Positions 5,822 to 32,443 are shown, counted from the first letter of the stretch. The stretch: 58,989 nucleotides of DNA from Candidatus Thorarchaeota archaeon (GCA_046758445.1 JBHIAE010000016.1:1-58989); one strand, 5' to 3'. The notes: generated by a model not told the origin, from the letters alone. Program-made: numbers and translations.

Positions 5822-5857
5822 GATGTATCTGACTCGATATATCTTGTCAGACACTCT
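5822..5857. promoter_or_regulatory. GATATATC 14-bp-period array upstream of the HMA-YHS gene
   Basis: GATGTATC (5822), GATATATC (5836), degenerate GACACTCT (5850). Confidence 0.6.
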
Positions 5858-5910
5858 TGCAGGAAACCCACATGAGAAGGAAACAAGATGGCAGAGAGGA
5901 GCACAGCATA

Positions 5911-6323
5911 ATGAACCATCACAAGTTACCGAGAGAGAAGAGTGACCGATTCTCTACAAGTATTGATGATTCCTATTGCCCCTCGTGTTTAGCAGCCATA
6001 GCCCCTGGGCTTTTGAAGTATGAAGGCATTACAAAGGTGGCGGTGCTCCATGCAGGAAGGCAGATTGTCGTTGAGTATGACCCTGACAGAATCAGCCACC
6101 AAGAACTGAAGGAAGCACTGGAATCTGCCATTGCAGAGAACTTTGAGGCTGAAGGGGGCCTAAGTCAGCAATAGATCCCGTATGTCAGATGACGGTGAAG
6201 ACCGACGTGGACGCTCTCTACAGTGACCACAACGGTCAGCGTTACTACTTCTGTGCGTTGTCATGTAAACGTGCTTTCGATGAAGACCCTGCTCTCTTCG
6301 AGGATATCAGTTTCGCCGAATAG
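5911..6323 (+). pseudogene. HMA-YHS(TRASH) metallochaperone fusion split by a -1 frameshift
   Basis: HMA domain (SYCPSC...IVVEYDPDRISHQELKEALE) ends at TAG 6174. The -1 frame, open from 6153 without a start codon, reads PKSAIDPVCQMTV...YYFCALSCKRAFDEDP to TAG 6323. A G5 run sits at 6154-6158. Confidence 0.75.
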
Positions 6324-6348
6324 TCGACCGATTCTCAAAGAGAGGTGA

Positions 6349-6598
6349 AGTGGCGGCGGCAGGGGAGGAGTAAAGGGACCTGCTCCTTTGGCACTGTTGA
6401 GTGGACTTTCCTTGTGCAACGTCTTCAAAGAATTCACCCCGTATGGTTGACGGACTTGGTACAGGGGAATCTACGGAAATAGCACTCGGTGACACGGAGT
6501 TTCTGAAGAGTGTGACTCAGGAACTGAAGACCCGAGGAATGACGTTTCATTTTGAAAGCAATGGTGGGTACGGATTCGTCGTGCTGATTACTAAGTGA
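6349..6598 (+). pseudogene. Possible decayed TusA/SirA-like sulfur carrier
   Basis: GAGGTGA RBS then GTG followed by stops. LSGLSLCNVFKEF in one frame continues as MVDGLGTGESTEIALGD...FVVLITK in another, resembling the TusA layout. Confidence 0.3.
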
Positions 6599-6619
6599 TG
6601 CTGCAAGTGGGGCCTCAAG

Positions 6620-6862
6620 ATGAGTATCATGAAAACAGTGACCTTGAGGATGCTTGCCACACAAGTCACTCTCATGGTTGCCTACATAGTCACTAGGAAA
6701 GTCGTGCTAACAACTAGCGTAGGCATTGGCGACGCAGTATTGAAGACTATTGCCTACTACTCTCATCAGAGATTGTGGAACAAAATAGAACGAGCAAGAA
6801 GCACGGTTGAGTGCAGTGGCCTCAAACTTGAGCAAATCCAGGCAGTTCTAGACAGAAGATAA
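6620..6862 (+). CDS. DUF2061-like small membrane protein (possibly degenerate)
   Basis: SIMKTVTLRMLAT...LKTIAYYSHQRLWNKI matches the KT..WR...YY.HER.W pattern with substitutions. Confidence 0.65.
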   Translation: MSIMKTVTLRMLATQVTLMVAYIVTRKVVLTTSVGIGDAVLKTIAYYSHQRLWNKIERARSTVECSGLKLEQIQAVLDRR

Positions 6863-7123
6863 GAAGCCTCGGACTGAAACTATATCACGATATCGAGCTG
6901 GCACTAATGCGCAATTCACGGAGTTGAGCCCAGTATCGCTTCTTGGGCGGACAGTACTCCGGTGCTCAAGTCTGGCCAACTTGCGATGATCGGTCGAGAA
7001 CAGCTGCTGAGGTTTTGATGCAGTCATACCATGGATTCTCAAGATTGAGAAGGTCTGGATGGAGGCGTCTTATGTATAATCAATTCAAGGATGGTTCATT
7101 CTTGCTGGAATCTATCTAACGCT

Positions 7124-7627
7124 TTACATTCCCTTCATGGCTGTTCCCATATCCCCGCAGAGTGTGCTCCTGTCAGTGGGGCTGAAACGCCCAACAATCA
7201 GTGGGCCATCAAGACCCTTCTTCTCTCTTTCCATTCGGCATTGGAAAGTTATCTCGTCCTCCTTACCGAACTTATAGACCTTTCCGGCGATGTGAAGGTG
7301 TCCTTTCTTTCTTGCAGTGTAGACAGTCGGATGCGGCGAAGCCCACCACCACGTTCCTTTCGGTTTGATGACCCCTTCTCCTAATAGACGTCGGACCTCT
7401 GCCACGTATTCTAGTTCCTCTTGTTGCCAAGGTCTGCCACGCATTACACTGAATCTTATGTCATGTTTTAACTCATCCAGTCTTCCTTCTTTCCGGTATC
7501 TTTCTACAGCATTAGGGTCAGTCACCAAAAACACATCTTCAGAATCGACCGCAGAAACGTCAGCAAAGTACTCCTCAGGCTGATCTTCTTCAATGAATCC
7601 TCTCAGTCTTCTCAACATATCTATCAT
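7124..7627 (-). CDS. Hypothetical protein, paralog of 7624-8292
   Basis: Shares DIRFSVMRG.PW, QC.M.RE..GLDGP..GR, LC..M..AMK with the upstream ORF. 4-nt ATGA overlap; GGAGGT RBS. Confidence 0.8.
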   Translation of the reverse strand: MIDMLRRLRGFIEEDQPEEYFADVSAVDSEDVFLVTDPNAVERYRKEGRLDELKHDIRFSVMRGRPWQQEELEYVAEVRRLLGEGVIKPKGTWWWASPHPTVYTARKKGHLHIAGKVYKFGKEDEITFQCRMEREKKGLDGPLIVGRFSPTDRSTLCGDMGTAMKGM

Positions 7628-8292
7628 ACCTCCATCTTGATGATTCGTCCAGCAGCTTTCATAGCGCCCTCCATTTTCTTACATAACATGGTCATCTTCC
7701 TAGGAGTCAGTCTGCCTATGAAGACAGGCCCATCCAAGCCATGTACTTCGCGACTCATCTGACACTGCCACACAATGTCATCTCCCCTCCTGAATGTATA
7801 CCCGGTGCCGGCTATAGTCATCAGGCCATCTTTCATTGCTCTAAAGATTGTCTGAAATGGACTGGAAAACCAGAAGCTAGTTGTCCTCCGTACTAGTCCG
7901 ACATCGAGCAGACGCCTAATCTCTATCATGTATTCTATGTCTTCTCTGCGCCATGGTTTCCCCCTCATGACACTGAATCGAATGTCTTGCTCTAGTTCTT
8001 CCAGCCTTTTTTCAAACCTGAAGTTGGCCTTCGCAACGATGTCTGTAAAAAGCCAAACATTCTCTGGATCGAAGACTCCTGACTCCAACACATCCTCTTC
8101 CATCACGAAGTCTGCACCATCATGGATAGCAAGCTCGACTCCGCAATTCGGGCAGTTCGTGATATATCTGCTCTTGAGAGGTGCACCGCAGTGGGGGCAG
8201 GAGAACGCTTCTATCTTCAATTCATCATCACCAATCCCGCTATCCTGTTTCATTACGTGAGGATGCCCCCTTGGAAACTGTCCGAGTGCCAA
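7624..8292 (-). CDS. Hypothetical protein with N-terminal zinc ribbon, paralog of 7124-7627
   Basis: CPHCG...CPNCG followed by the shared unknown domain. Start may be ATG at 8253. Confidence 0.8.
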   Translation of the reverse strand: MALGQFPRGHPHVMKQDSGIGDDELKIEAFSCPHCGAPLKSRYITNCPNCGVELAIHDGADFVMEEDVLESGVFDPENVWLFTDIVAKANFRFEKRLEELEQDIRFSVMRGKPWRREDIEYMIEIRRLLDVGLVRRTTSFWFSSPFQTIFRAMKDGLMTIAGTGYTFRRGDDIVWQCQMSREVHGLDGPVFIGRLTPRKMTMLCKKMEGAMKAAGRIIKMEV

Positions 8293-8529
8293 AGCAATTC
8301 TTGCTCAACCTATCTTCCCGATTACTCCACAATTCTGGTACATTATGACAAAGCTCACATGCAGTCGGCGTATGAATCTTGCGAGCGTCTGTGGCACCTA
8401 GAATGTACTTGCCGTTTCGGATTCCCCGTGAAAGAAGAAATCGGACGGAAATTGACACTGAATACTTGTCGCAAGCCTGGTTCATCACTATTGTCCATTC
8501 CGTCCGATTCATACGAGGTCGACTTATCG

Positions 8530-8738: not shown

Positions 8739-8782
8739 AGTATATAAATATATCGTCATGGATATATCGTAACTGATAATGG
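8739..8782. promoter_or_regulatory. GATATATC array and TATA box in the divergent YHS/copA promoter
   Basis: AATATATC (8747), GATATATC (8761), GATAATGG (8775). Minus strand reads GATATATC-N6-GATATATTTATA. Confidence 0.75.
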
Positions 8783-8823
8783 GAAGAGTGGCCACTTTGA
8801 CAAGGGCAGCACCTTCTTCCTAG

Positions 8824-11484
8824 ATGGTGAAAGAAATGAACAAGACAACTCAAAAGGCGGAACAACAATCAAGCCTCTCGATGAGAATCGAAGGAATGCA
8901 TTGCGCTTCCTGCGTGAGCACGATTGAGAAAGCACTATTGAAGCAGGATGGTGTGATACGTGCTGCAGTGAGCCTGCTGGATGAAAAGGCAGTAGTTGAC
9001 TACGCACCGGAGAAGGTTGACAGAGCTGTCCTTGAGAAGGCAGTAGAGTCGACCGGATACAAGCCTGTTCGAGCGAAGATGACAATCACACTGACTCCCC
9101 GACCTGAGGAGGACCAGTGGGACTTGATCTTGGAGCATATTGGTCAGATTGAAGGGGTGATTAGTACGACCCCATTCACTGAACGTGGACGTCTTCTTGT
9201 AGAATACGACGAAAGTCTGGTGACTTTCAAGATAATAAAAAGGTCCCTGCAGGAGATTGGATTTGAAGTAGAGCACCATGACAGCATCGATGTTGATAGG
9301 GAAGCATCGACTCGTGAACGTGAGATTCGCTTCTACCTGCGGCTCTTGCTCTTTTCCACTATATTGAGCGTACCCATTCTCATACTGACCTTGGCACCCC
9401 AGATACTTCTACCATTTCTGCCACCTGGTACTGAGCCTGAGGTCCTGAACTTCATCTTAACCACACCAATCCAGTTCATTGCTGGATACCCTTTTTACAA
9501 ATCGACCTTTAGGGCTGCAAGACATGGTAAGGCCAATATGGACACTCTCATAATTCTGGGTACAACCGCAGCATACTTCTATTCTGTGGCAGCCACGTTC
9601 ATCCTTGAGGGATACGTTGCATTCTATGATACTGCCGCTCTGCTAATCACGTTTATCATTCTGGGCAGAGCCCTGGAGGCTATTGCGAAGGGCCGCACCT
9701 CTAAGGCCATAAGGAAGCTCTTGGACCTGCAGGCAAAGGTTGCAGTGATAATTCGAGATGGAGAAGAAATCACCGTCCTCATCGAAGATGTAGAGGTTGG
9801 AGACATTCTCCTCGTCAAACCCGGTGAGAAGGTTCCCGTTGACGGTGAAGTGATTGATGGTCAGTCGTCCGTCGACGAGTCCATGGTGACGGGAGAGTCC
9901 ATGCCAGTAAGTAAGAAAGTTGGAGATCCAGCAATTGGTTCCACAATCAACAAGAATGGCGTTCTCAAGATACGCGCCACCAAGGTGGGGCGGGACACTG
10001 TTCTCTCTCAGATAGTCCGTTTGGTAGAAGAGGCACAGACCAAGAAGCCTCCCATCCAGCGCAAGGCGGATGCAATCGCAGGGGTGTTCGTGCCAATAGT
10101 GATTGTGATGGCCGCAGCAACTTTCCTAGTATGGTATGGTCTCGAACCAGTGGAATGGGTGAGAGCGCTCAGCTTTATGATTGCAGTTCTTGTTGCAGCC
10201 TGTCCTTGCGCACTTGGTCTGGCGACACCCACGTCTCTGATGGTAGGCATTGGAAAGGGGGCAGAACAGGGCGTACTCATCAAGTCTGGGGCTGGTCTGG
10301 AAACCATCCCGAAGGTCGACACGATTGTTTTTGACAAAACGGGAACGCTTACTATCGGGAAGCCTACTGTAACAGACGTAGTAACAGACGGCAGTAGTGG
10401 CTCAGAAGAAATAATCAGGCTCGTTGCTGCCGTTGAGAAAAACAGTGAGCATCCATTGGCAGAGGCTATAGTCCACTATGCTGAGGAGAAGGGAATTGAG
10501 ATTCCGGAAACAAATGACTTCATTTCCGTCACTGGCCGAGGAGTAAGTGCAATTGTCGAAGGATCCAGAGTCCTTGTTGGAAATGACAGATACATGAATG
10601 AGAACAGCATCGACACTGGGAGCCTCCATGAGCATATTATGAGGCTGCAGGATGAAGGCAAGACGACCGTCTACGCCTCAAAGAATGGAGAATCCCCTGT
10701 TCTGATAGCGATTGCAGACACCTTGAAGGACGGTTCCTCAGAAGCAGTTTCGATGCTGCAAGACATGGGGATTGATGTCTTGATGATCACTGGTGATAAG
10801 GAGAGAACAGCTCGTGCAATAGCTCAATCTGTAGGAATACACAGGGTTCTTTCAGAGGTGTTGCCAGGTGATAAGGCCAACGAGGTCAAGAAGCTACAGG
10901 AAGAAGGGCATCTGGTTGCGATGACTGGTGATGGGGTAAACGATGCTCCAGCATTGGCCCAGTCAGATGTAGGCATTGCCCTAGGTTCAGGTACTGACGT
11001 ATCTGTGGAAACGGGTGATATTGTTTTGGTGAAAGACGACCTCTTGGATGTCGTTACTGGAATTGACGTCGGAAGAAAGACCATGAGTAAGATTAGACAG
11101 AACTTCTTCTGGGCTCTTGTCTACAATGTATCCCTGCTACCCATAGCCGCAGGAGTCATCTATCCCTTCACTGGTATTGTATTGATTCCTGAGTTTGCTG
11201 CTCTAGCCATGGCCTTCTCAAGCGTGAGTGTTGTTTCTAACTCCCTTTTGCTGGGACGCTATAATCCAAGTCGGCACAAGCAAATGGAAACGGTGGCAAA
11301 GAGTCCCGAATCCGCGGAAAGCGCAGTAGCAATTGACCCAATATGCAAGATGGATGTGGAGGTAGCCACTGCAGACCTCTATAGCGACTACAACGGCAAG
11401 AGGTATTACTTCTGTGCCGCGAACTGCAAGAATACCTTCGATCAGAACCCTGCTGAGTATGAGAACATGGATGTGAGGAGCTGA
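8824..11484 (+). CDS. copA: Cu(I)-translocating P1B-1 ATPase with N-terminal HMA domains and C-terminal YHS domain
   Basis: GMHCASC, TGES, CPC, DKTGT, SEHP, GDGVND, YN and MAFSS motifs; C-terminal DPICKM...YYFCAANCK. Start may be 8836. Confidence 0.95.
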
Positions 11485-11581
11485 GGAACCAGCTCTCTCA
11501 TCCTCTCTCTTTTTTCAAATTTCGTGCGATGTCATGCAGAGAAGCATGTAGTGTGAAACCATTGCTTAAGGTGAGTCTGAC

Positions 11582-12070
11582 ATGCCCTTGAGAAGAAAGA
11601 AGGATGAGCGGCGGCACAACTCAGAGTCAGAAATGCAGATCATACTCTCGGACTTTTCACAGTTCTACGTTCTTCTGCTACTGAGTGAGGCCGCCTCTCA
11701 TGGGTATGGACTGATCAAGAAGTACAAGCGTAGAACTGGTAGAGAACTGAGCGCAGGCACACTCTACCCATTTCTTCAGTGGCTAAAACAAACTGGACTC
11801 ACACGACATGATGCTGAGTCAACAGGTATAAGGCAAAAGAGAGTCTATTCACTCACTGAGATGGGGAAGGCGTTCTGTGAACGACTGTTTCACAGGTTTG
11901 CCGCAATAACTGCATCCGCTATTGAGTCGAGTTTGGAAGTTTGTGCAAACTGTGGAGTCAAGATTTATGACGGTGGTCATGAAGAAGAGATTGACGGCGA
12001 TGTAATGGCTTTCTGCTGTCCACATTGTGCCACGGCATTCAAGCGTCAACGCCGAAATGCGCACCGCTGA
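11582..12070 (+). CDS. PadR-family wHTH regulator with C-terminal TRASH-like metal-binding domain
   Basis: LLLLSE...HGYGLIK...SAGTLYPFL...KRVYSLTEMG (PadR); CANC...FCCPHC. Confidence 0.85.
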   Translation: MPLRRKKDERRHNSESEMQIILSDFSQFYVLLLLSEAASHGYGLIKKYKRRTGRELSAGTLYPFLQWLKQTGLTRHDAESTGIRQKRVYSLTEMGKAFCERLFHRFAAITASAIESSLEVCANCGVKIYDGGHEEEIDGDVMAFCCPHCATAFKRQRRNAHR

Positions 12071-12671: not shown

Positions 12672-12741
12672 GACATATCACACAGGATAAGAGCACAGCA
12701 AAGATTATATATCGGTGTTGATATATCCAGTGCGATAGAAC
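12672..12741. promoter_or_regulatory. GATATATC array upstream of the ABC transporter operon
   Basis: TATATATC (12706), GATATATC (12720), GATAGAAC (12734); also GACATATC (12672) and GATAAGAG (12686). Confidence 0.7.
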
Positions 12742-12801: not shown

Positions 12802-13911
12802 ATGGTCCGCTTGACAAAAGAGAACCTGAAGAGTGAGAAGTCCAAAGTTGGTATCAGCATTGGTGGAGTGGTGCTCAGTGTCTTCCTGATATTGACCATG
12901 ATGGGGCTCTACTACGGATTCGATACGATGATGGATGGTATGGTACGTGGAATAGGGGCAGATCTCTGGGTGACGTCAGAAGGAGCTAGTGGGTCTTTAC
13001 ACAGCCCTTCACTTCTCCCTCTAACGCTCGAGGAGAACATCACAGGAATCGAGGGTGTGGAAGAATGCGTTCCTTTTATTCGAACACCCGTGTCAACAGA
13101 ATCTGATGAGGGGAAGTTACTGCTATACATCAACAGCTACGAGAATGAGTCAGGTATGGGAGGTCCGTGGAGTATCATAGAAGGCAGATCAGAAGTAACA
13201 GATGGTGAGATTATTGTCGACAAGGCCCTTGCCTTCAAACTAGGTCTAAGGATCGGTGGGAATTTCACAATTGAGGACAGGGATTTTCGTGTAGTGGGAA
13301 TCTCCGACGAAACGAATATGATGATAGCCTACTTTGTCTTCATCACGTTTGAGGACGCCAAATCATTTCTATTAGAAGGTGTGACCAACTACTTTCTTGT
13401 TAAGGTTGAATCCAATTCAGACTTAGATACAGTGATGGCCGCAATCGAGAATGCGTTGTCTGACATCTCAGTCAGTACACCCGGCGAAACTGCAGAGTCA
13501 TATAAGAATGAGATTCTTGGCGGCTTTGTACCAATCTTCTATGTACTGAGTATGATTGGATTGCTAGTTGGTATACAGGTAATAGGAGTCATGGTGTACA
13601 GTCTGACCATGGAGAAAGCCAGAGAGTTTGGAATCCTGAAGGCCCTAGGTGCGAGCAATCTGTACCTTTACAGAGTCGTAGTGATTCAGGCATTGGCTGT
13701 TTCACTTCTCGGTTTTGTCATTGGCTCCCTGATTGTGCCTCCACTGATTTCCTTCCTGCAGGTCTATGTTCCTGAGTTTGTAGTGGAGATTACGCTTGAC
13801 ATGGTCATTGGTGTTTCAGCATTGGGTATCGTAACGGGGCTCATCGCCTCAGTCGTCCCTGTCAGGAAGCTGGCGGGACTCGATCCAGCCCTCGTATTCA
13901 AGGAGGCTTAG
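12802..13911 (+). CDS. Type VII (MacB/FtsX/HrtB-like) ABC transporter permease
   Basis: One TM helix, a large extracytoplasmic domain (GADLWV), then three TM helices; EKAREFGILKALGAS and LDPALVFK motifs. Confidence 0.9.
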   Translation: MVRLTKENLKSEKSKVGISIGGVVLSVFLILTMMGLYYGFDTMMDGMVRGIGADLWVTSEGASGSLHSPSLLPLTLEENITGIEGVEECVPFIRTPVSTESDEGKLLLYINSYENESGMGGPWSIIEGRSEVTDGEIIVDKALAFKLGLRIGGNFTIEDRDFRVVGISDETNMMIAYFVFITFEDAKSFLLEGVTNYFLVKVESNSDLDTVMAAIENALSDISVSTPGETAESYKNEILGGFVPIFYVLSMIGLLVGIQVIGVMVYSLTMEKAREFGILKALGASNLYLYRVVVIQALAVSLLGFVIGSLIVPPLISFLQVYVPEFVVEITLDMVIGVSALGIVTGLIASVVPVRKLAGLDPALVFKEA

Positions 13912-13914: not shown

Positions 13915-14808
13915 GTGTCTGACACTGTTAATGCCGGCCAAAGGCATACTGTTGAGCTAACCAACGTCACAAAGGTCTACGGGGCTGGAGCTGCGTCCGT
14001 GACAGCAGTCGATGATATATCACTGCACGTTGAGAGAGGAGAGATGGTTGTCCTGATGGGGCCTTCAGGTTCCGGGAAGACAACTCTGATACAGTTGATT
14101 GGCGCTCTGCTGAGTCCGTCGGCAGGGGAGATCCGTGTCAATGGAAGAAGTTTCACAGGGCTATCGAAGAGGCAGTTATCTATGATTCGCCTGCAGGAGA
14201 TGGGGTTCGTCTTTCAGAATCCTAACTTGCTCTCTTCACTCACAGCATCTCAGAATGTGGAGCTGGTACTGAACCTTTCAGGAGTGAAAGGGAGTCGGGC
14301 ACGGCAGACTGCAGACAGGTTGCTGGACCGAATGGGTCTTGCAGAAAGGCTTGACCACAAACCTAGTCAGTTGAGCGGAGGGGAACAACAGCGAGTGGCA
14401 ATTGCCAGGGCGATTGCCAATGACCCTCAGCTGATACTTGCAGATGAACCCACTGCTAACCTGGACTCAAAGACTGGACACCAAGTCATCGAGCTACTTA
14501 GGCAGACTGCCAAAGAGAAAGGCAAGACAGTGATCATTGCCACACATGACCTTAGAATAAGGGATCTCGCTGACAGGGTCCTGTGGCTGGAGGACGGTGT
14601 CCTGAGTGTGAGATGGTCGAAGGAGTTCATGATTGACCCAGTCTGTCTGATGTTGGTCGATAGGACCACAAGGCTGACGGCTGTTTATCAAAGCAAGAAA
14701 TACTACTTCTGTAACAACACATGCATGGACGAGTTCCTGCGCAGTCCGGACAAGTACGAGGGAAAGGGCTCATGGAACGGAGTTTCAGACAGAAACGAGA
14801 GATCTTGA
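13915..14808 (+). CDS. ABC ATPase (LolD/MacB-like) with C-terminal YHS/TRASH domain
   Basis: GPSGSGKTT, LSGGEQQR, ILADEPTANLD, ATHD; tail IDPVCLMLV...YYFCNNTCMDEFLRSPDKY. Confidence 0.92.
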   Translation: MSDTVNAGQRHTVELTNVTKVYGAGAASVTAVDDISLHVERGEMVVLMGPSGSGKTTLIQLIGALLSPSAGEIRVNGRSFTGLSKRQLSMIRLQEMGFVFQNPNLLSSLTASQNVELVLNLSGVKGSRARQTADRLLDRMGLAERLDHKPSQLSGGEQQRVAIARAIANDPQLILADEPTANLDSKTGHQVIELLRQTAKEKGKTVIIATHDLRIRDLADRVLWLEDGVLSVRWSKEFMIDPVCLMLVDRTTRLTAVYQSKKYYFCNNTCMDEFLRSPDKYEGKGSWNGVSDRNERS

Positions 14809-14985: not shown

Positions 14986-15939
14986 CTAACCCCTTCTTCT
15001 GGCAACTACCGCGACAATGATTACTAATACGACTATAGCTCCTGATGTAACAAGAAGCACCTCAGGAGCAAGCCCACCATCCGTGTCCGTTGGAGAGGTA
15101 GTCGTGTCTCCATAGCCATTTATCCAGACTGATTGCACGAAGCTCACAGAATGGCTTGCCCCTGCTGAACCACTGAAGATGGCTATAGCGAACTCATAGT
15201 ATCCATCGTGGTCGAACTGTACATCCCCAGGATCGTCGGTCACTAGCGGCCTTACCATCTCAATCTGATAGTTCTGCTCATAGTGATCCGTGATGTTCCC
15301 ATGAGCCGCTGCAGTCTGAACATTCTGGAATGTATCCGTATGCCAACCCTCGCTATCGAAGGAATAGTCTATGACACTGCCGGTCACAGTCTTGTTGCCT
15401 CTATTGGCGGTTGGAACCTGTGTCCCAGTTTCACTTGCAGAGGGTTTCCATGTGAAACTGTCAACTGCCTCTCCAGCATTTGGAGTTTCCATACCTGAGA
15501 AGTATGCCGCGGTGAAATTGGCGGCATTTATGTTCCAACAAATCGCGAAGCCATCACTGTCCTGGTACTGGGGAGTATCCGTGCCATTGATGTCGGGATC
15601 CTCCCAGCTCACAAGAATAAACAAATGAGTAGTATTTTGGGCAAATATCATCTTGACCATTTGTTCATTGGCGCCAAACATGCCGCCCACAGGTACTTCC
15701 ATCCGTTTTCCATATGTTTCTTGCCAGAACGGTTCAGTAGCCTTGCCGTCGAGGGTGATTTCCATATCTCCGTATCGTTCATCATACGCAATGGCCGGGC
15801 TGTTGTGACAGAGGCTACAATCGGCGTTTCCGCCGAAGCCCGGAAATGCATGTATCTGCGTTGCTGCGAAACCGCTAAGTAAAACCAACATTGCAATGAG
15901 AACGATGCCGTGAAGAGTTCCTTTTCTTCTCTTTCTCAT
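14986..15939 (-). CDS. Membrane-anchored surface protein with CxxCH heme-c motif and EB_dh/DOMON(CBM9-like) domain
   Basis: Signal peptide; CSLCH; ITLDGKATEPFW, FILVSWEDP, DGFAICW, IEMVRPL..DDPGDVQF, FAIAIF; Thr-rich linker and C-terminal TM with RRR. Confidence 0.75.
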   Translation of the reverse strand: MRKRRKGTLHGIVLIAMLVLLSGFAATQIHAFPGFGGNADCSLCHNSPAIAYDERYGDMEITLDGKATEPFWQETYGKRMEVPVGGMFGANEQMVKMIFAQNTTHLFILVSWEDPDINGTDTPQYQDSDGFAICWNINAANFTAAYFSGMETPNAGEAVDSFTWKPSASETGTQVPTANRGNKTVTGSVIDYSFDSEGWHTDTFQNVQTAAAHGNITDHYEQNYQIEMVRPLVTDDPGDVQFDHDGYYEFAIAIFSGSAGASHSVSFVQSVWINGYGDTTTSPTDTDGGLAPEVLLVTSGAIVVLVIIVAVVARRRG

Positions 15940-15987: not shown

Positions 15988-16009
15988 GATATAACCTCCC
16001 AGATATAAC
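15988..16009. promoter_or_regulatory. Variant 14-bp-period pair upstream of the cytochrome-like gene
   Basis: GATATAAC (15988) and GATATAAC (16002). Confidence 0.5.
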
Positions 16010-16234
16010 AGTTACGTACTATATTTCGATGACTATAGCTATCTTCTGTAATAGCGGAAAAAGGAGCCGCTGATAGCTGACGATAACTAGCACACTGTTT
16101 CTAGATGACCACACTTTGAATCTCTAGTGAAACCTCAAGAAGACGAAACCGATGCGTTAGATATCTCGCTAGGAGTCTGTTACTCAAGGGAGAAGGAAAA
16201 CAGTAGACTATGAACTCGAGCCTCAATTCAACCT

Positions 16235-16276
16235 TTTATATCCAAATGGATATATCCATATGGATGTACTTATAAG
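16235..16276 (+). promoter_or_regulatory. GATATATC array fused to a TATA box
   Basis: TTTATATC (16235), GATATATC (16249), GATGTACT (16263) running into CTTATAAG. Confidence 0.7.
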
Positions 16277-23177: not shown

Positions 23178-23635
23178 TAGTAGTGAACACCTCTATAGAC
23201 ATTGGCTGAGTGATAGGCCATGATTGATTTCTAACCCCACTCTAGAGCTTGGATGTTGATTAGGAGCCATCATAGATGCTCAAACTCGTTGCCAAAGAGG
23301 CACGCGTCTATCACGCCGTTATAGCTTGAAAAAGATATTCGCAAGATCTGCACCTATCGTGCTCGAAGAATTGCTCTCTGCGCAAGAAGCAGTGTCTTTA
23401 TTTCGAGAGCAAAACTGATTGGACAGTTGTTACGGTTTCCGCGATGTTTCCCAAATGCTCATTCCACGCTTTCGTTATGCTCCTAGTTTCATTTAGGTTA
23501 CTTGTTCTATGGCCTTCGAAATGTAAAGAGAGAGAATCCTCACTCTACCCATCCAGGAATCTGTGAGATTCGCACTTCTTGGATACGACACGGCAACATT
23601 ACGCAGGCAGAACTTTTGAGTATCTTTGAGTCACT

Positions 23636-23661
23636 GATATATCTACGGCGATATATTTATA
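23636..23661 (+). promoter_or_regulatory. GATATATC array fused to a TATA box
   Basis: GATATATC (23636)-N6-GATATATTTATA (23650). Confidence 0.7.
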
Positions 23662-23793: not shown

Positions 23794-24027
23794 ATGACAA
23801 AGACAAGAAACGGACTTCTGAATCTTATCTGGGGCTTGGGGTATTTGGCTATGGGCGAGAGGGTCCTTGGTGTTGGATTGCTAATTGCACTGCCCTTTTT
23901 GCACTGGCCGCTATTGGTAGGAAATTGGGCACTTTACTTGACGTATCCCTTCATTATGGCCCTCATTGGACACTTTATCCTATCTTTTGTGTTTGCGATA
24001 GACGCATACTCCCGAACGCCTGATTGA
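23794..24027 (+). CDS. Small membrane protein
   Basis: 77 aa, hydrophobic, LLNLIWGLGYLAMGE pattern. Confidence 0.55.
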   Translation: MTKTRNGLLNLIWGLGYLAMGERVLGVGLLIALPFLHWPLLVGNWALYLTYPFIMALIGHFILSFVFAIDAYSRTPD

Positions 24028-24473: not shown

Positions 24474-25061
24474 ATGAGAGACCAAGACGACGGTAGCAAG
24501 GTCATGAAGGCGGTCTTGATAGGGGACGGTGCAGTTGGCAAGACCAGCATCAGACGTAACTATCTTGGAGACGACTTCATTGAGGGTCATCTTGCCACCA
24601 TAGGCGTCGATCTCGCAACCAAGAAGGTCCTCTTCGGAGAAGACATTGTGAAGTTCATTATTTGGGATCTTGCAGGACAGCCAACCTTTGAGAAGGTCCG
24701 TGGACACTACTACCATGGCTGTAACGGTATCATTCTAGTCTACTCGGTAGAAGACCGGAGGTCATTCGACAACGCCTCCAAGTGGCTTGTAGAAGCATAC
24801 AAGAACATGGGACCACTTCCTCCAACAGTCATTGTCGGAAACAAGATTGACCTAAGACCTCAGACACCGAAGGATCAAATCGTCACGCCCGAGGAGGGTA
24901 TCAAGTTCATGGAGTACTTCATTGAGAAGCTGGGCGTCCCTGCTGTCTTCAGAGAAACCAGTGCAAAGACAGGAGAGAACATCCAAGACACCTTCCATGA
25001 GCTGCTCAGGATGATGAGTGAGGCTGACGCTGAGAAAGAGTCTGAGATGTTTGTGGGCTGA
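24474..25061 (+). CDS. Rab-like small GTPase (Ras superfamily; eukaryotic signature protein)
   Basis: G1 GDGAVGKT, G2 ATIGVD, G3 WDLAGQ, G4 GNKID, G5 ETSAKTG. No C-terminal Cys. Confidence 0.95.
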   Translation: MRDQDDGSKVMKAVLIGDGAVGKTSIRRNYLGDDFIEGHLATIGVDLATKKVLFGEDIVKFIIWDLAGQPTFEKVRGHYYHGCNGIILVYSVEDRRSFDNASKWLVEAYKNMGPLPPTVIVGNKIDLRPQTPKDQIVTPEEGIKFMEYFIEKLGVPAVFRETSAKTGENIQDTFHELLRMMSEADAEKESEMFVG

Positions 25062-25149: not shown

Positions 25150-25240
25150 GATATTTCAAATTGGATATATCTGTCCCGATAGATTTATATGGGACGGGTG
25201 TGTTTATGATACAGTCCCGATATATCCTTGTGGATATAAA
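25150..25240 (+). promoter_or_regulatory. Composite GATATATC/TATA promoter element, copy A
   Basis: Units at 25150, 25164, 25178 (running into TTTATAT), then 25219 and 25233. Confidence 0.8.
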
Positions 25241-25357: not shown

Positions 25358-25510
25358 ATGGCGAAATGTCCGGTATGCGGAATGATGGGAAAACCCAATA
25401 TCAAATCGGTCTATAAGGGGAAGACGTACTATTTCATGAATCCTCAGCATAAGGCGATGTTCGAAGCCAATCCTGAGAAATTCAATCTTGAAGTGGGTAT
25501 TGACGAGTAA
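25358..25510 (+). CDS. Variant YHS/TRASH protein (50 aa, not in ORF track)
   Basis: MAKCPVCGMMGKPNIKSVYKGKTYYFMNPQHKAMFEANPEKFNLEVGIDE*; AGGTGA RBS. Confidence 0.85.
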   Translation: MAKCPVCGMMGKPNIKSVYKGKTYYFMNPQHKAMFEANPEKFNLEVGIDE

Positions 25511-25677: not shown

Positions 25678-25768
25678 AATATATCTTCATGGATATATCC
25701 TACCCGATAGTTTTATATGGGTTGGAGTCGGATATAATACGATTGCGATATATCCTTGTGGAAATATA
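25678..25768 (+). promoter_or_regulatory. Composite GATATATC/TATA promoter element, copy B
   Basis: Units at 25678, 25692, 25706 (running into TTTTATAT), then 25747 and 25761. Same spacing as copy A. Confidence 0.8.
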
Positions 25769-25882: not shown

Positions 25883-26065
25883 ATGGCAAAGGATCCAGTC
25901 TGTGGGAAGCAGGTGAACGAACAAACAGCAGAATTCACCTCTGAGCATTTGGGCTATAGATACTACTTCTGCGAGGAAAAGTGCAAGGACAAGTTTGACA
26001 GCAGTCCTTTCATGTATACGACTCGAAGAATTACACCAGTGCGAAGAGGCGGATGCTGTGGCTGA
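25883..26065 (+). CDS. YHS/TRASH protein with C-terminal GGCCG tail
   Basis: MAKDPVCGKQV...YYFCEEKCKDKFDSSP...RRGGCCG. Confidence 0.9.
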   Translation: MAKDPVCGKQVNEQTAEFTSEHLGYRYYFCEEKCKDKFDSSPFMYTTRRITPVRRGGCCG

Positions 26066-26499: not shown

Positions 26500-26718
26500 A
26501 ATGGAGGGCGAGTCTGCATGGTCCGAGAGGTCGCTCGCAGGGAATCGGGCGCAGGTCATGTGGAAACTCGACCAGCATCACCCAACAACTATTCAGTGGA
26601 ATAGGATTGATGACCCAAGTAGACGTGATTCTCTATTTCGCCACCCCTCGTCAAGGTTGAGCCCGTTGAATGCACCTTCTGACAACGGGATGAAAATGCT
26701 TGGTAGCGAGGTAGTCAA

Positions 26719-27648
26719 ATGATTGTTGCCCCAATTGTAATATCCCTGCGAGAGGGAATTGAAGCTGCTTTGATCATTGCCATAATGCTCTCGTATCTCC
26801 GTAAGACTGGCAGAGAGAATATGACGCGCTTGGTCATTGGCGGAACCTTGCTGGCATTTGCAGCCAGCGCAGGTCTAGCGGCAGTCATGGCAATAGTTTG
26901 GGGCGCTTTTGAAGGACCGATGCTGGGAGTCTTCGAGGGTTTAATCGTCATAATAGCAGCCCTTCTTTTGACCTCAATGATATTCTGGATGTGGAGGGCA
27001 GGCGCTGGAATAGCGAAGGAGATTGAAGAGTCCGTTGAGGAAGGCGCCAAGGTGAGAAACTTCAGTCTGCCCATTCTTGCTTTTGCTCTCGTCCTGCGTG
27101 AAGGTGTCGAGCTAGTTCTATTCACGGCCGCATTGGCGATTCAAGAGGGATACACGACGTATATTGGAGTAACTCTGGGACTAATGCTTGCGGGGGTTGT
27201 CGGATTCGGTATCTATGAAGGCTCCCTACGAATCAGTCTCAAATCTTTCTTCAACTTCACTTCAGTTCTCTTGGTTCTCTTTGCTGCCGGGATGATTGCT
27301 TATGGCATACATGAGTTCCAAGAAGCTGGTTTCCTACTGTTAGGTCCCCTGGAAGTCTGGAACATCAATCCTCCATTGCTTCCAGATGGCAGCTACCCTC
27401 TTCTGCACGAGAAGGGTTTCATCGGCGGCATCGCTAAAGCCCTATTCGGGTACAATGGGAATCCTTCAGCACTTGAGGTCACTGGCTATTTAGTATATCT
27501 GGCCCTAGTTTCTCTTTCGTATCTTAGGGCAAAAGCTCGGTTTCGACTTGCCCCTAGACGATTGGTCATTCGCGTGAATATAGTACGTGCTAAGGAAGAG
27601 CCACTTCGGACTGATCCCACAGACGCCAATTGGATGAGGAATCCCTAG
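26719..27648 (+). CDS. FTR1/EfeU-family iron (lead) permease
   Basis: Two REGxE motifs (LREGIE, LREGVE), HEFQEAG, ALFGY; about 7 TM segments. Confidence 0.9.
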   Translation: MIVAPIVISLREGIEAALIIAIMLSYLRKTGRENMTRLVIGGTLLAFAASAGLAAVMAIVWGAFEGPMLGVFEGLIVIIAALLLTSMIFWMWRAGAGIAKEIEESVEEGAKVRNFSLPILAFALVLREGVELVLFTAALAIQEGYTTYIGVTLGLMLAGVVGFGIYEGSLRISLKSFFNFTSVLLVLFAAGMIAYGIHEFQEAGFLLLGPLEVWNINPPLLPDGSYPLLHEKGFIGGIAKALFGYNGNPSALEVTGYLVYLALVSLSYLRAKARFRLAPRRLVIRVNIVRAKEEPLRTDPTDANWMRNP

Positions 27649-27746: not shown

Positions 27747-28655
27747 TCAGCACTTACATGGAGCACGTTGCATGCCGTCGATATTCTCCAGAACCCTGGT
27801 TGGTGTTTTCGGAAACGCTCTCTCGAGGAGTTCTTTCATTGGGAGCAGGCCGTGGCGTTCGCTACGATAATGGTCAATCTCAACAAGAGTCATGCCAAGC
27901 TCCCTGGCGACAGTTTCGACTACCCAATTGAGGTCCGATGATATCAGAACGTCTACCCCCCAATCAGCCATCTCAATCATCATGTTGTCTACAAAACCTC
28001 CTCCTGGTATATAGCCAACCTTGGATGTCCGACATTGAGGATTGATGATTACTGAAGGACGAACATTCATCGAGTATAGTCTATCAATGAGATCCCCCAT
28101 TGATATATCTCGTTTGAATATTGCTCCCAGTCGAGGAATCAGATGGTCCCGATAGGTCAAATCGACCTTTCTGAATTCATTCTCTGACAATCCAAAGTCA
28201 GAGAGAAACGAATCCATGATTCCACCATCCATGATGTCCCAACCGAGATGAAAGTTGTAGATATTGTAGCGAGCCTGTTTTGCATGCTCAAGCATCTGTG
28301 AATAGATACGGTTGTTGTGTGTCGAGATCTTATGATGACAGATTACTAGGCTGTTTTTAGGGACATGAACGAAGTTCAGTGGATCCGGATTTATCATAAG
28401 GTAAAGAGCGCTGCTGTAGTCAACGGATTTCACTTCATAACCCACATAATCAAATTCGAAAGTTTGAGTGCGCCTTTCCAAAAACTCGACAACGCTATCA
28501 GATGACACCCGGGCTTTAGGTTCTGCAGTTAGCGGCTGCAGTCTCCCAGGATCTATGGGAGTCACCATTGGTCTGAACGATATGGGCTTGTCTATTCTAT
28601 CTAGCTCCATTCTCACGTTAGTAGGAATCGTCAATACTGTTATTCTCCTTGGCAT
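27747..28655 (-). CDS. NIF3/YbgI-family dinuclear metal-centre protein
   Basis: ICHH, NFHLGWD, IPGGG, VLISSD, IDHYRSE motifs; C-terminal PCKC. Confidence 0.8.
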   Translation of the reverse strand: MPRRITVLTIPTNVRMELDRIDKPISFRPMVTPIDPGRLQPLTAEPKARVSSDSVVEFLERRTQTFEFDYVGYEVKSVDYSSALYLMINPDPLNFVHVPKNSLVICHHKISTHNNRIYSQMLEHAKQARYNIYNFHLGWDIMDGGIMDSFLSDFGLSENEFRKVDLTYRDHLIPRLGAIFKRDISMGDLIDRLYSMNVRPSVIINPQCRTSKVGYIPGGGFVDNMMIEMADWGVDVLISSDLNWVVETVARELGMTLVEIDHYRSERHGLLPMKELLERAFPKTPTRVLENIDGMQRAPCKC

Positions 28656-28807: not shown

Positions 28808-28897
28808 TATATATCTCCGTGGATATATCGCTTTCGTAGTATATCTCGTCCCCGACTTATAAATCTATCTGGCAAGATATATCCAAAATGACATAAT
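28808..28897 (-). promoter_or_regulatory. Composite GATATATC/TATA promoter element, copy C (NIF3 gene)
   Basis: Minus strand reads TTGGATATATC-N6-GATAGATTTATAA...CGATATATC-N6-GATATATA. Units at 28890, 28876, 28862 and 28822, 28808. Confidence 0.8.
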
Positions 28898-29045: not shown

Positions 29046-29095
29046 GATATCTCATTAGCGATATATCCTGTATGGCATATCTGGTGCGATATATT
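29046..29095. promoter_or_regulatory. Four-unit 14-bp-period array upstream of the wHTH gene
   Basis: GATATCTC (29046), GATATATC (29060), GGCATATC (29074), GATATATT (29088). Confidence 0.75.
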
Positions 29096-29127: not shown

Positions 29128-29382
29128 GTGAGTAATGAAACGATGAGTGACGGAATCCTTTTGGAACTCGAGAAAACGAAACTCACACAGAGTCAGCTGG
29201 TTATACTTGAAATCGTAAGAGAGAATGGAACAACCGGTACGACCCCGAAAGAGATCCAGGGCATGGTGTCATTTGCCCCAAGAACAATCAGATATGCTCT
29301 CAGAAGTCTCCAGCATAATAATCTAATCAGGAGAATTCCGTGTCTTCAAGATATGAGGCAGTCAGTGTACATTCCCGCATAG
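29128..29382 (+). CDS. Small archaeal MarR-like winged-helix protein
   Basis: LTQSQLVIL...TPKEI...APRTIRYALRSL...DMRQSVY. Confidence 0.8.
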   Translation: MSNETMSDGILLELEKTKLTQSQLVILEIVRENGTTGTTPKEIQGMVSFAPRTIRYALRSLQHNNLIRRIPCLQDMRQSVYIPA

Positions 29383-29572: not shown

Positions 29573-31993
29573 TCATGGCAATAATCCGTGATCCACTACT
29601 GGAAAGTTGTACTTCCCCATTATCATGGCCATTCGACACAGGCTCTCATCAACAAGAGCGTTTATGGTTCCAGAAGGATATCTGCCGTCTTCTTGTCGCC
29701 GACCTGCGGGCACGTCGGTCAGCAATTCAATCCCCTCATCCACCGTTTCGATTGCATATATGTGGAACATTTCCGCGTGAACGGCCTCAACCACATCGTC
29801 TGCTAGCATCAGGTTTTGAACGTTAGCCTTCGGAATCAGAATTCCTTGGTCACCGGTCAGACCTTTGGCTTTGCATAGCTGGAAGTAGCCCTCTATCTTC
29901 TCGTTGATTCCTCCTACTGCCTGTATCCTTCCATGTTGGTTGACAGAACCAGTCACTGCGAAACGCTGCTGCACCGGAACGCCGGAAAGAGATGATAGAA
30001 TGGCGAAAAGCTCTGCACTACTGGCGCTGTCCCCGTCAATCTCGCCGTAGCTTTGCTCAAACACAATTCTTGATGAAAGACTGATCGGTTTATCCTTGCC
30101 AAACTTGTTTGCCAAATACCCACCTAGGATGAGAACCCCCTTGGTATGAATTGGTCCGCCGAGATCTGATTCACGTTCGATATCTATGACACGACCATAG
30201 CCCGGAGAAGTGCTTGCTGTGACTCGAGACGTGTGTCCAAAAGAGTAGTCTCCAAGAGTTATTAGGGCGAGTCCATTTACCTGCCCCACGGTCTGTCCCT
30301 CAAGGTCGATCAGGATTACATTGTTCTCAGCCAGCTCACGGATTTTCTCAACACGTAGATTTGACCTATTCAATCGTTGTTTGAGAGCTTTTCTGATGTG
30401 GCTTCTCTCCATCGTGACACTTCCATCTTTTTGAGCATAGAAGTTCGCCTCACGAATAACGTCAGAGATGACATCAAACCTTATGGAGAGCTTGGTCTGG
30501 TTGTCCGCAAGGCGAGAACTGTAATCGATTACCTCCGCTATGGCATCCGCTCGAAGCGGCCTAAGGCCTTCCTTCTGATGAATCATGCATATAAAAGAGC
30601 CAAACACCTTGATGTTCTCGGGTGTGCGTTCCATGATGATATCGAATTCAGCTTTAACCTTGAACAACTGGCGAAACTCAGGATCCTTCTCGTAAAGCTC
30701 GCGATATATCGCGTCATCTCCTATCAGAATCACCTTAACATCAAGTGGGATAGGCTCAGGACGGAGTGTCTTGACCACGAGAGGACTTGATATCTCGGAA
30801 GAATCTTCGATGACTATTTCACTGTGTTCAAGTGCTCGCTTCAATGCCTGATATGTGGGTGGGGAGGACAGTAGCTCCTCGGCGGGTATTACGATATATC
30901 CCCCGTTTCCCTCGTGGAGAGCACCGCGACGTATCATTGAAAAGTCAGTCTTCAGTCCACCGTATTGTGATTCCTTTTCAATAGTTCCGAAGAGATTCTG
31001 GTAGGATGGATTGTTGACGGTGACAACAGGTGCCCCCTTAGTGCCCAGATTGTCCACTATCAGGTTTACTTGATACCTTTTGGCGAACTCCTCGGGTGAG
31101 ATTAGCGCAATTTCAGAGATGATCTGCTCTTTTGAAGAATCACCCGGTATGCCTCCTATGAATTCGTGAAGATTATCTGTGATGTCTCGAGCCACCTCCC
31201 GAATCCATTCAGTGATTCTTGGCAAATCCGAGTGCTTTTCCTCGATCTCTTCAATCATCGGAGAGAGTGTAAAGAGAACGGCTTCTTTCTCCATTTTCCG
31301 AAGCCCCTCCTGGAGTTCAAGCTCAACTGCCCTCATCTTGCGGAAGAGCACTCTCAGAACCTTCTCTAAGTCGTTGCGACGTTCTTCAGTTTCAGCTTGA
31401 ACTGATTGCGGCACACTTGTCATCATTTCTGGAGTCAGTGGTTTACCATCAATCAGCGGTAATACCACAAGTCCAGTCTGGGAGCCTTGGAGGACAAACC
31501 CAGCTTTCTGAGCCTCGTCCTCTATCTGTCTAGCAACAGATTGTTGTTCATTCGTAGACGTTTTCAGTAGGCTATCTCTCTGAGTTGCATATTCATCACT
31601 CTCTAGCATTTTGATGATTGTTGTACGAGCTAGCTCAATGAAACTCTCCATATGTAACGCAAGCTGCCAACCTCTGCTCGATGGCAGCTCAAGTGCTCGT
31701 GGGTGATATGGGTCCTCGAAATTGAATACATAACACCAATCGGAGGGGTCGGAGCGCTTGGCAGCAAGTTCCTTCACAAACCTGGATACAGCAGTGGTTC
31801 GCCCTGTTCCGGGGATTCCTGCCACATAGACATTGAATCCTTTATCCTCTATCATTAGTCCAAATCGCAGTGCTTCGAGAGCTCTGTCTTGTCCGATGAT
31901 GCTATCAAGTGGGAACAACTCAGCACTCGTACCTGAGCCAAATTCCTTGGAATCACAACGCACTCGAATCTCCTCTGAATTCAGCTTCTTCAT
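29573..31993 (-). CDS. Lon-family (LonC-like, S16) protease
   Basis: IGQDRA, degenerate Walker A GIPGTGRTT, GQVNGL, IERES.LGGPIHTKG, FEQSYGEIDGDSASSAE (Ser), GGINEKIEG (Lys); no TM segment. Confidence 0.9.
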   Translation of the reverse strand: MKKLNSEEIRVRCDSKEFGSGTSAELFPLDSIIGQDRALEALRFGLMIEDKGFNVYVAGIPGTGRTTAVSRFVKELAAKRSDPSDWCYVFNFEDPYHPRALELPSSRGWQLALHMESFIELARTTIIKMLESDEYATQRDSLLKTSTNEQQSVARQIEDEAQKAGFVLQGSQTGLVVLPLIDGKPLTPEMMTSVPQSVQAETEERRNDLEKVLRVLFRKMRAVELELQEGLRKMEKEAVLFTLSPMIEEIEEKHSDLPRITEWIREVARDITDNLHEFIGGIPGDSSKEQIISEIALISPEEFAKRYQVNLIVDNLGTKGAPVVTVNNPSYQNLFGTIEKESQYGGLKTDFSMIRRGALHEGNGGYIVIPAEELLSSPPTYQALKRALEHSEIVIEDSSEISSPLVVKTLRPEPIPLDVKVILIGDDAIYRELYEKDPEFRQLFKVKAEFDIIMERTPENIKVFGSFICMIHQKEGLRPLRADAIAEVIDYSSRLADNQTKLSIRFDVISDVIREANFYAQKDGSVTMERSHIRKALKQRLNRSNLRVEKIRELAENNVILIDLEGQTVGQVNGLALITLGDYSFGHTSRVTASTSPGYGRVIDIERESDLGGPIHTKGVLILGGYLANKFGKDKPISLSSRIVFEQSYGEIDGDSASSAELFAILSSLSGVPVQQRFAVTGSVNQHGRIQAVGGINEKIEGYFQLCKAKGLTGDQGILIPKANVQNLMLADDVVEAVHAEMFHIYAIETVDEGIELLTDVPAGRRQEDGRYPSGTINALVDESLCRMAMIMGKYNFPVVDHGLLP

Positions 31994-32044
31994 CAAACCA
32001 TCTCCTCTTCCTGAAGACAAGTCTCCAACATACCAATCACCTTC

Positions 32045-32203
32045 CTATTTCCTTAATTCCTGAACAAGAAAATGCTCAGGGTTGCTGTCGAAGGCCTTCT
32101 TGCATCCCTTCATGCAGAAGTAGTATGTCTTTCCCTTGTGCTCTGACTTATACTTCGAGCTCTTTTCATCTACTGTCATTCCGCAAACCGGGTCTCGAGC
32201 CAT
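32045..32203 (-). CDS. Stand-alone YHS/TRASH protein (52 aa, not in ORF track)
   Basis: MARDPVCGMTVDEKSSKYKSEHKGKTYYFCMKGCKKAFDSNPEHFLVQELRK*; GAGGTGA RBS. Confidence 0.9.
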   Translation of the reverse strand: MARDPVCGMTVDEKSSKYKSEHKGKTYYFCMKGCKKAFDSNPEHFLVQELRK

Positions 32204-32279
32204 TCTTTCACCTCTGTTATTTCAGACATTATGCGCCATAAGACATGTGGCGTTCTATGTAATGACGGACCAACATAGT

Positions 32280-32315
32280 AATATATCTGTTTCGATATAT
32301 CCTGTATGATAGTTA
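32280..32315 (-). promoter_or_regulatory. GATATATC array upstream of YHS-lon
   Basis: AATATATC (32280), GATATATC (32294), GATAGTTA (32308). Confidence 0.75.
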
Positions 32316-32402
32316 CATAGGGCTCAGGAACTAGTCTGTCAAATAGCTTCAAACAGGCATCATGCCAGAAGTGCACTATTAGGCCGATTCTGAGATGAGC
32401 AT

Positions 32403-32443
32403 CGTTTATCTATGAAGATATATCCCATACGATATATTTATAT
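32403..32443 (+). promoter_or_regulatory. GATATATC array fused to a TATA box upstream of the second PadR-TRASH gene
   Basis: CGTTTATC (32403), GATATATC (32417), GATATATTTATAT (32431). Confidence 0.75.

Follow-up and report, generated by a model that had tools for sequence, protein, structure and literature searches.

A TRASH-type copper regulon has been described in archaea for CopR of Pyrococcus furiosus (PF0739), with homologs named in Sulfolobus and Halobacterium; CopR, with a helix-turn-helix (HTH) of the Lrp/AsnC type, assembles into octamers around which about 150 bp are wrapped; its recognition sequence TTNNCAWWWTGNNAA immediately precedes the B recognition element (BRE), and it activates copA (PMC7830388). 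For the PadR family, the operator complex of Bacillus subtilis PadR has been solved, with one dimer on two 6-bp repeats 6 bp apart and an effector that releases the protein allosterically (PMC5728393), and Fur and DtxR provide precedents for overlapping dimers on different faces of the DNA (PMC4506495). Here we describe phased arrays of the palindromic 8-mer GATATATC in a 58,989-nucleotide stretch of DNA from Candidatus Thorarchaeota archaeon (GCA_046758445.1, JBHIAE010000016.1:1-58989), hereafter the window, which is the entire contig C16 and 1.8% of a 3.25-Mb assembly of 113 contigs. The arrays are probably operators of PadR-TRASH, a protein encoded twice in the window (32654-33097 and 11582-12070) that would act as a repressor released by Cu(I). 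Asgard archaea are mostly uncultured, and we know of no transcription factor-operator pair defined in them; in silico the one proposed here is sharply delimited, a 147-amino-acid protein with a 36-bp site that marks about 13 promoters in this genome and is conserved across dozens of genomes.

PadR-TRASH resembles CopR/CopT in the fusion of a C-terminal TRASH domain to an N-terminal DNA-binding domain, in a gene that adjoins copA and is autoregulated (as the operator in front of it suggests here), in having more than one target promoter, with sites on or beside BRE/TATA, and in an extended multi-dimer occupancy, which is here predicted. It differs in its PadR-type HTH and in its sites, TATATC-N6-GATATA in 14-bp phase fused to TATA. 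The CopR motif TTNNCAWWWTGNNAA is not enriched in the window, with one match against 0.22 expected, at the unrelated site 1963. PadR-TRASH would thus be a copper switch operating in the manner of CopR/CopT yet standing outside their family, since its HTH is PadR and not Lrp and the CopR motif is absent; copper sensors would have arisen at least twice in archaea through fusion of TRASH to different DNA-binding domains (Lrp, PadR). The initial annotation of the window knew of no archaeal metal regulon with this operator, which stands insofar as the CopR motif and HTH differ, although a TRASH-type copper regulon had already been described (PMC7830388). The CopR-consensus match (TTCCCAAAATGGGAA, 1963-1977) is part of separate TCCCA-N3-TGGGA sites near an AbrB-like gene.

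With PadR subfamily 2 (LmrR, Rv3488, TA0346) the protein shares a predicted winged HTH (wHTH) with long alpha1 and alpha4 helices, its invariant tyrosines may correspond to the conserved tyrosines of PadR proteins, and the 6-6-6 geometry of the B. subtilis PadR site equals that of the TATATC-N6-GATATA unit seen in the sequence. It departs from PadR proteins in the additional C-terminal TRASH domain as presumed sensor, in the overlapping, phased dimer sites and in the half-site sequence; as an archaeal protein it would act against TBP/TFB, not against sigma-RNA polymerase. The Fur box and the DtxR/IdeR operators likewise consist of overlapping metalloregulator repeats (GATAAT arrays) with two wHTH dimers on different faces (PMC4506495), but those protein families are unrelated, and the metal is a co-repressor there and the proposed releaser here. 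The literature searched yielded no paper on PadR-TRASH regulators or on an operator of this kind. The system would offer a compact copper-responsive switch whose operator doubles as the TATA box. The regulon would also place poorly understood genes in a context of copper stress, among them those for LonC-like proteases, small YHS proteins, NIF3 and the MacB-type ABC system that carries a YHS tail.

Phased arrays of probable operators and their distribution

The window holds 20 copies of GATATATC against 0.59 expected, an excess already seen in the initial annotation, and none of 100 shuffles got to 20. One third of all copies in the assembly (62) lie on contig C16, and genome-wide the word is otherwise no frequent palindrome. 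Fourteen of the 20 window copies are intergenic and flanked by near-copies at exactly ±14 bp; the remaining six are isolated in coding regions (8161, 14014, 28102, 30703, 30893 and 43699). The information profile around the intergenic 8-mers, taken for the window and, separately, for relatives (metagenome-assembled genomes (MAGs) of Thorarchaeota, Hermodarchaeota and ‘Promethearchaeota’), is nATATATC-N6-GATATATC-N6-GATATATn; its flanking units lie exactly ±14 bp from the centre, and neither the spacers nor positions farther out than ±22 bp carry information. Spacing is specific to N6: the genome contains 21 copies of ATATC-N6-GATAT (10 within the window), as opposed to 2-6 genomic occurrences of the same half-sites at N4, N5, N7 or N8, and all five genomic copies of the three-unit form TATC-N6-GATATATC-N6-GATA fall within the window. 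The operator unit can be read as a set of two (at most four) TATATC-N6-GATATA palindromes that overlap with an offset of 14 bp, usually fused to a TATA box. The exact 14-bp period first claimed for all units was borne out in the specificity of N6 but is not universal, since one flanking unit at 28836 is shifted by 16 bp and only 14 of the 20 exact 8-mers lie in arrays.

An operator matrix built from relatives only gave 21 matches at or above the genome threshold of 14 bits in 3.25 Mb, compared with one in the reversed genome. Seventeen lie in the window (5822-32438), two on contig C7 and two, weak, elsewhere; every unit start listed in the initial annotation was recovered. As that annotation had also stated, the window has no arrays outside 5.8-32.5 kb, but a strong operator exists elsewhere in the genome (C7:5517). 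Occurrence throughout the genome regardless of gene function had been named as an outcome that would speak against a regulon; the arrays are instead confined to metal-handling genes in this genome. The window appears to hold a particularly expanded regulon, with about 13 promoters and 17 matrix matches. An Rfam scan of the window matched no family.

Two promoter layouts were distinguished, reading promoter geometry from the nucleotide sequence only. In class 1 the last array unit runs into the TATA box as GATATATTTATA, GATAGATTTATA or GATAGTTTTATA (23650, 25178, 25706 and 32431; on the minus strand, 28862 and 32280), in agreement with the earlier description of terminal units entering the TATA box. 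In class 2 it is unit 1 that is joined to a TATA-like tract, with the array extending downstream over the expected start (copA, macB, the C7 site and Hermodarchaeota padR promoters). Three window promoters carry a second operator centred 54-55 bp downstream. Across all loci, operator spacings of 53-56 bp and of 14 bp were each found nine times, the latter representing arrays grown to 4-5 units.

The operators are conserved upstream of orthologs in other Thorarchaeota and in Hermodarchaeota, contrary to the second outcome (no such conservation) that the initial annotation had named as speaking against a regulon. A strict 28-nt pattern is present in 12 of 41 related genomes, all of the window's family, and in none with the reversed control. 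Six relatives have sites upstream of orthologs of copA, PadR-TRASH, small YHS genes, YHS-Lon and NIF3/MarR, and also at small genes adjoining a Ras-like GTPase gene. The NIF3 ortholog in G015 is flanked by operators, and the YHS-Lon pair stands behind operators in G015, G020 and five further loci. When ten PadR-TRASH upstream regions were aligned, operator and TATA formed the only strongly conserved block. Copies and species differ in their spacers but retain the 8-mers and the N6 phase.

Two further observations concern the word itself. The coding copies of GATATATC in the regulon stretch (8161, 14014, 28102, 30703 and 30893) number five, where the rest of the genome would predict about 0.35; phased flanks are lacking, as is positional conservation in relatives. 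TATC-N6-GATA matches at C2:94748-94810 were rejected as operators and belong instead to a 12-bp-period GATATC repeat, with six GATATC at exactly that period.

The PadR-TRASH protein and its probable link to the operator

Both paralogs are PadR proteins by Pfam (PF03551, cut-off 27), with 60.8 bits for paralog 2 and 52.8 bits for paralog 1; their N-terminal domain has no Lrp/AsnC profile match, and they have an identical recognition helix, LS[PA]GTLYPFLQ. The TRASH model PF24273 (TRASH_HVO_1752_C, cut-off 27) scores above its cut-off for paralog 1 (33.5 bits) and below it for paralog 2 (19.1 bits). Paralog 2 has the arrangement C111-x2-C114-x20-C135-C136-x-H138-C139, invariant in 44 homologs, and this C-x2-C-x20-CC-x-H-C fits the TRASH cysteine pattern, which Ettema et al. 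reportedly gave in 2003 as C-x2-C-x19-22-C-x3-C. Also invariant in the 44 homologs are Y32 (in HGY) and Y52 (in LYPFL); the PadR DNA-binding motif comprises two conserved tyrosines and a basic residue (PMC5728393).

An AlphaFold2 model of paralog 2 (predicted local distance difference test score 83) has helices at 3-26, 31-42 and 48-60, a wing at 64-81 and a helix at 83-104, that is, a predicted wHTH followed by a long C-terminal helix and a small, beta-rich cysteine domain at the C-terminus. The best Foldseek matches of the model were Rv3488, LmrR and TA0346 of PadR subfamily 2 (TM-scores 0.77-0.83), and sequence matches in the PDB were TA0346, Rv3488 and other PadR proteins. PadR-TRASH is thus predicted to be a PadR subfamily-2 fold with a C-terminal TRASH domain. 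Public databases name its homologs only ‘PadR family transcriptional regulator’ or ‘TA0938 family protein’, and NCBIfam has no dedicated family, only sub-threshold PadR and Rv3488 matches.

We examined 45 loci with PadR-TRASH homologs (47-90% identity) from Thor- and Hermodarchaeota. An operator match of at least 14 bits, mostly 25-40 bits, is present in 41, usually 50-280 bp upstream of the gene and in four loci 0.7-3.3 kb away, and a second operator often lies between the gene and copA. PadR loci that lack TRASH have an operator in 0 of 5 cases. The open reading frames (ORFs) flanking operators in the 45 loci encode PadR-TRASH (35), YHS proteins (23), CopA (14) and Lon (5), in a set that is centred on the regulator gene and biased accordingly.

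Co-occurrence was assessed in 301 genomes of the phylum, in which the pattern with at most one mismatch is found in 84, versus about 22 for the reversed control; the gene was detected by a hidden Markov model search for PadR-TRASH in the same genomes and cross-tabulated by hand, and the counts are descriptive, the relatives not being independent. In the window's family the pattern occurs in 26 of 28 genomes with PadR-TRASH versus 10 of 49 without, and all 16 genomes with at least three pattern matches have the gene. The corresponding figures in a second, Hermodarchaeota-like family are 12/16 and 1/3. Five genomes that lack PadR-TRASH (96-99% complete) have orthologous copA genes (58-64% identity), with Ras-copA synteny in two, and no operator of at least 10 bits within 1.5 kb of these copA genes.

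A distant AT-rich Asgard family, f9, has a homolog with 33-42% identity in which the helix reads ASPTY[IV]YDFL instead of LS[PA]GTLYPFL. Its upstream region has a different conserved palindrome with the same N6, TATATAC-N6-GTATATA, fused to a TTTAAA box; because the palindrome differs, the standard pattern is not associated with the homolog in this family (7/30 vs 12/38). This supports co-variation of the recognition helix with the palindrome. Of the three local regulators initially put forward as candidates, PadR-TRASH co-occurs with the arrays, which are very probably the docking site of this neighbouring protein.

In f9, a variant operator GATATATAC-N5/6-AGTATATATTTAAA was seen 90-135 bp upstream of the homolog in at least 14 of 16 genomes (loci L070-L085). 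A complete Thorarchaeota chromosome (CP070658.1, 8475-8963) encodes a PadR-TRASH ortholog with tyrosine in place of the second cysteine of C-x2-C (CASYG), and this ortholog keeps its operators.

Proposed regulation and competing explanations

PadR proteins are dimeric. In the mechanism we propose, one PadR dimer would bind each 18-bp palindrome TATATC-N6-GATATA, and successive palindromes would overlap by 4 bp, placing their centres 14 bp apart with a perfect GATATATC as the shared junction and turning each step by about 120 degrees. Most sites would then take up two dimers (three 8-mer units), and some one, three or four. With the end of the array usually being the TATA box itself, dimers would cover TATA/BRE or the stretch from TATA to the start, and in the cassettes, where a second operator lies about 55 bp downstream over the expected transcript start, the early transcribed region would be covered as well. 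The copper-free protein would occlude TBP/TFB and RNA polymerase and so repress copA, the HMA chaperone gene, three small YHS genes, the MacB-type ABC system with its YHS tail, the EB_dh heme protein gene, the DUF6114 gene, the YHS-Lon unit, NIF3, the MarR-like gene and PadR-TRASH itself; Cu(I) bound to the four-cysteine TRASH tail would release the protein from DNA. The copper context is given by the CPC/YN/MxxSS residues of CopA and by HMA and YHS domains in the targets. The idea in the initial annotation of one regulator on overlapping palindromes at the BRE/TATA of a copper regulon fits the restriction to metal genes, the conservation at orthologs and the co-occurrence with PadR-TRASH; its cooperative wrapping is unneeded, since two to four PadR dimers on 18-bp sites overlapping by 4 bp fit the data.

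A stronger version, possible though doubtful, is that PadR-TRASH dimers polymerise on DNA with a constant pitch of 14 bp (2-5 units, each turning by about 120 degrees) and with the terminal unit as TATA, that the transcript start is clamped by a second array lying four pitches (about 55 bp) farther downstream, and that Cu(I) dissolves the filament and frees the same bases for TBP. If true, this would be a mode of repression undescribed for PadR proteins or archaeal metal sensors and the first defined transcription factor-operator pair in Asgard archaea, and copper stress would thereby be coupled to NIF3, a LonC-type protease and, possibly, a His/Met-rich peptide resembling ribosomally synthesised and post-translationally modified peptides (RiPPs).

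Several points weigh against a copper-released PadR-TRASH repressor on these arrays. Adjacent 18-bp sites that overlap by 4 bp are crowded, and we know of no PadR precedent for overlapping dimer sites. Several operators lie 150-250 bp from the start codon, and long leaders are therefore implied. The matrix is anchored on exact central 8-mers, which inflates the weight of its centre. The 10 of 49 family genomes in which the pattern occurs and PadR-TRASH was not detected have one or two matches each; these MAGs are incomplete, and the reversed pattern matches in 5 of 77. In one lineage (G019) no operator lies within 1.5 kb of the PadR-TRASH gene. Thiophilic metals other than copper could be sensed by TRASH and YHS domains. 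Finally, the characterised TRASH regulator P. furiosus CopR activates copA, so repression is not assured (PMC7830388).

The activator mode of the Lrp-type CopR is the main mechanistic rival: PadR-TRASH might bind the arrays as a copper-dependent activator or dual regulator that stays on and remodels the DNA. CopR binds whether copper is present or not, acting as an activator of copA and a repressor of its own gene (PMC7830388), and roughly half of the promoters here have the array upstream of the TATA box and abutting it (23636, 25150, 25678 and 32403), a position used by archaeal activators. However, in the copA, macB, C7 and Hermodarchaeota padR promoters unit 1 is the TATA and the array covers the expected start, as a repressor would, the second operators about 55 bp downstream fall within the transcribed leader, and characterised PadR proteins are effector-released repressors (PMC5728393); we regard activation as unlikely. 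It is less probable still that the regulator and operator are as proposed and the signal is another thiophilic metal (silver, cadmium, zinc or mercury) or thiol/redox stress on the TRASH cysteines. Metal specificity of TRASH is not readable from sequence, and an expanded regulon with Lon, NIF3, an ABC exporter and a heme protein would suit general damage control, but the conserved core is copA with a P1B-1 Cu(I) signature together with HMA and YHS proteins, and all characterised TRASH regulators are copper-responsive.

A different reader of the arrays, with PadR-TRASH merely one of its targets, is similarly improbable. The candidates would be the 84-amino-acid MarR-like protein (29128), the HTH_3 protein (5300-5686) or an unlinked factor; both genes adjoin arrays in the window, and a four-unit array stands upstream of the MarR-like gene. 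Yet the MarR-like protein is one of a multi-copy family of paralogs found in 74 of 77 family genomes, irrespective of arrays, which makes its presence or absence uninformative; its close orthologs are found only in G010, and of the 45 loci one has it next to operators and none has HTH_3 there. Co-occurrence, joint absence and the co-variation of helix and operator all lie on the side of PadR-TRASH. Hardly credible is the notion that the arrays are no operators but AT-rich elements intrinsic to promoters or remnants of a repeated mobile sequence: their AT-richness, the TATA overlap and the common layout of about 90 bp in three cassettes would agree with it, but the 8-mers and phase persist across copies and species while spacers differ, other promoters of the genome lack the sites, and these are gone from copA promoters in genomes without PadR-TRASH.

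Probable operators, proposed target genes and neighbouring features in the window

The operators and the genes behind them are collected in Table 1.

Table 1 Operators and associated genes in the window. Matrix matches start at the first position of each operator entry unless other starts are given.
Feature	Position	Strand	Score or evidence	Remarks
Operator, 3 units	5822-5857		21.1 bits	Directly upstream of HMA copper-chaperone gene
HMA-domain protein, copper chaperone-like	5857-6174	+	Pfam PF00403, 29.5 bits
Operator	8747-8782		30.8 bits	Unit 1 fused to TATATAAATATATC; array heads toward copA start
CopA, P1B-1 Cu(I) ATPase	8824-11484	+	Pfam	HMA N-terminal, YHS C-terminal
PadR-TRASH paralog 1	11582-12070	+	PF03551 52.8 bits, PF24273 33.5 bits
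Operator	12706-12741		28.7 bits	Upstream of MacB-like ABC system
MacB/FtsX-type permease	12802-13911	+	Pfam
ABC ATPase with YHS tail	13915-14808	+	Pfam
EB_dh/DOMON-like putative heme protein	14986-15939	-	PF09459
Variant operator	15988-16023		18.4 bits	GATATAAC twice; 49 bp upstream of EB_dh gene start
Operator	16235-16270		33.6 bits	Upstream of DUF6114 membrane protein gene
DUF6114 membrane protein	16361-16852	+	Pfam
Two-unit operator	23622-23657			Units 23636, 23650; last unit GATATATTTATA; upstream of small membrane-protein ORF
Small membrane-protein ORF	23794-24027	+	Small-ORF inspection
Double-operator cassette 1	25150-25240	+	33.0 bits (O1), 29.9 bits (O2)	O1 25150-25185, TATA-fused; O2 25205-25240, centre 55 bp downstream of O1 centre; precedes YHS gene 25358-25510
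Double-operator cassette 2	25678-25768	+	33.3 + 34.2 bits	Matches start at 25678, 25733; centres 55 bp apart; precedes YHS gene 25883-26065
NIF3	27747-28655	-	Pfam
Double-operator cassette 3	28808-28897	-	28.1 + 30.9 bits	Matches start at 28808, 28862; centres 54 bp apart; minus-strand TATA toward NIF3
Four-unit array	29046-29095	+		Matches start at 29046/29060; upstream of MarR-like gene 29128-29382
LonB/LonC-like protease	29573-32020	-	Pfam
YHS52	32045-32203	-		Precedes protease gene in same unit
Operator	32280-32315	-	35.2 bits	Upstream of YHS52 + LonB/LonC-like protease unit
Operator	32403-32438	+	30.8 bits	Last unit GATATATTTATA; upstream of PadR-TRASH paralog 2
PadR-TRASH paralog 2, proposed regulator	32654-33097	+	PF03551 60.8 bits

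The signature residues of CopA are CPC at 460, YN at 767 and MAFSS at 796, with CASC of the HMA domain at 27; Arguello is said to have defined the P1B-1 signature in 2003 as CPC in transmembrane helix 4 (TM4), YN in TM5 and MxxSS in TM6, with an N-terminal HMA domain containing CxxC. The layout of the operator at 8747 recurs in relatives between padR-TRASH and copA. PadR-TRASH paralog 1 is probably co-transcribed with copA, and a matrix scan of the gap 11484-11582 in front of it gave no operator of its own. For paralog 2, the operator at 32403-32438 is proposed as an autoregulatory site from its position. DUF6114 homologs adjoin operators in two related loci.

Of the targets named in the initial annotation, the iron permease FTR1 (26719) was dropped. 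Its promoter region 26559-26719 has no operator of at least 8 bits and the neighbouring ORF is divergent, and for these reasons FTR1 is not counted as a direct target.

Within the approximately 190-nt stretch between the operator/TATA and the start of PadR-TRASH paralog 2, a second conserved block at 32510-32540, GGCAACT[AT]TTATAGGA, is shared by 9 of the 10 relatives aligned. Located some 120 nt ahead of the start codon, it may represent either an RNA element or a proximal promoter that lacks an operator.

No operator precedes the gene for a small GTPase of the Ras family (24474-25061, plus strand). Its orthologs occur in loci L013-L018, L090 and L091, and its position next to the copper locus is conserved in many Thorarchaeota, including genomes that lack PadR-TRASH. 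A second P-type ATPase gene (17556-19805, minus strand) encodes a CopB-like protein with a CPH motif and a His-rich N-terminus and has no operator upstream; one in-frame stop splits it into ORFs 19080-19805 and 17556-19070.

The only strong operator outside the window is on contig C7 of the same genome (locus L019 of G000), at 5517-5552, with a weaker one at 5476. It lies about 100 bp upstream of a 24-codon His/Met-rich ORF (5651-5725, MKEKHRQMEHRQRHGGHHEMMAHE), whose stop overlaps the ATG of a radical SAM/SPASM gene, followed by a DUF7714 gene (genes 5718-6818 and 6740-7723). From this arrangement, the locus may encode a copper-regulated RiPP-like peptide and its maturase.

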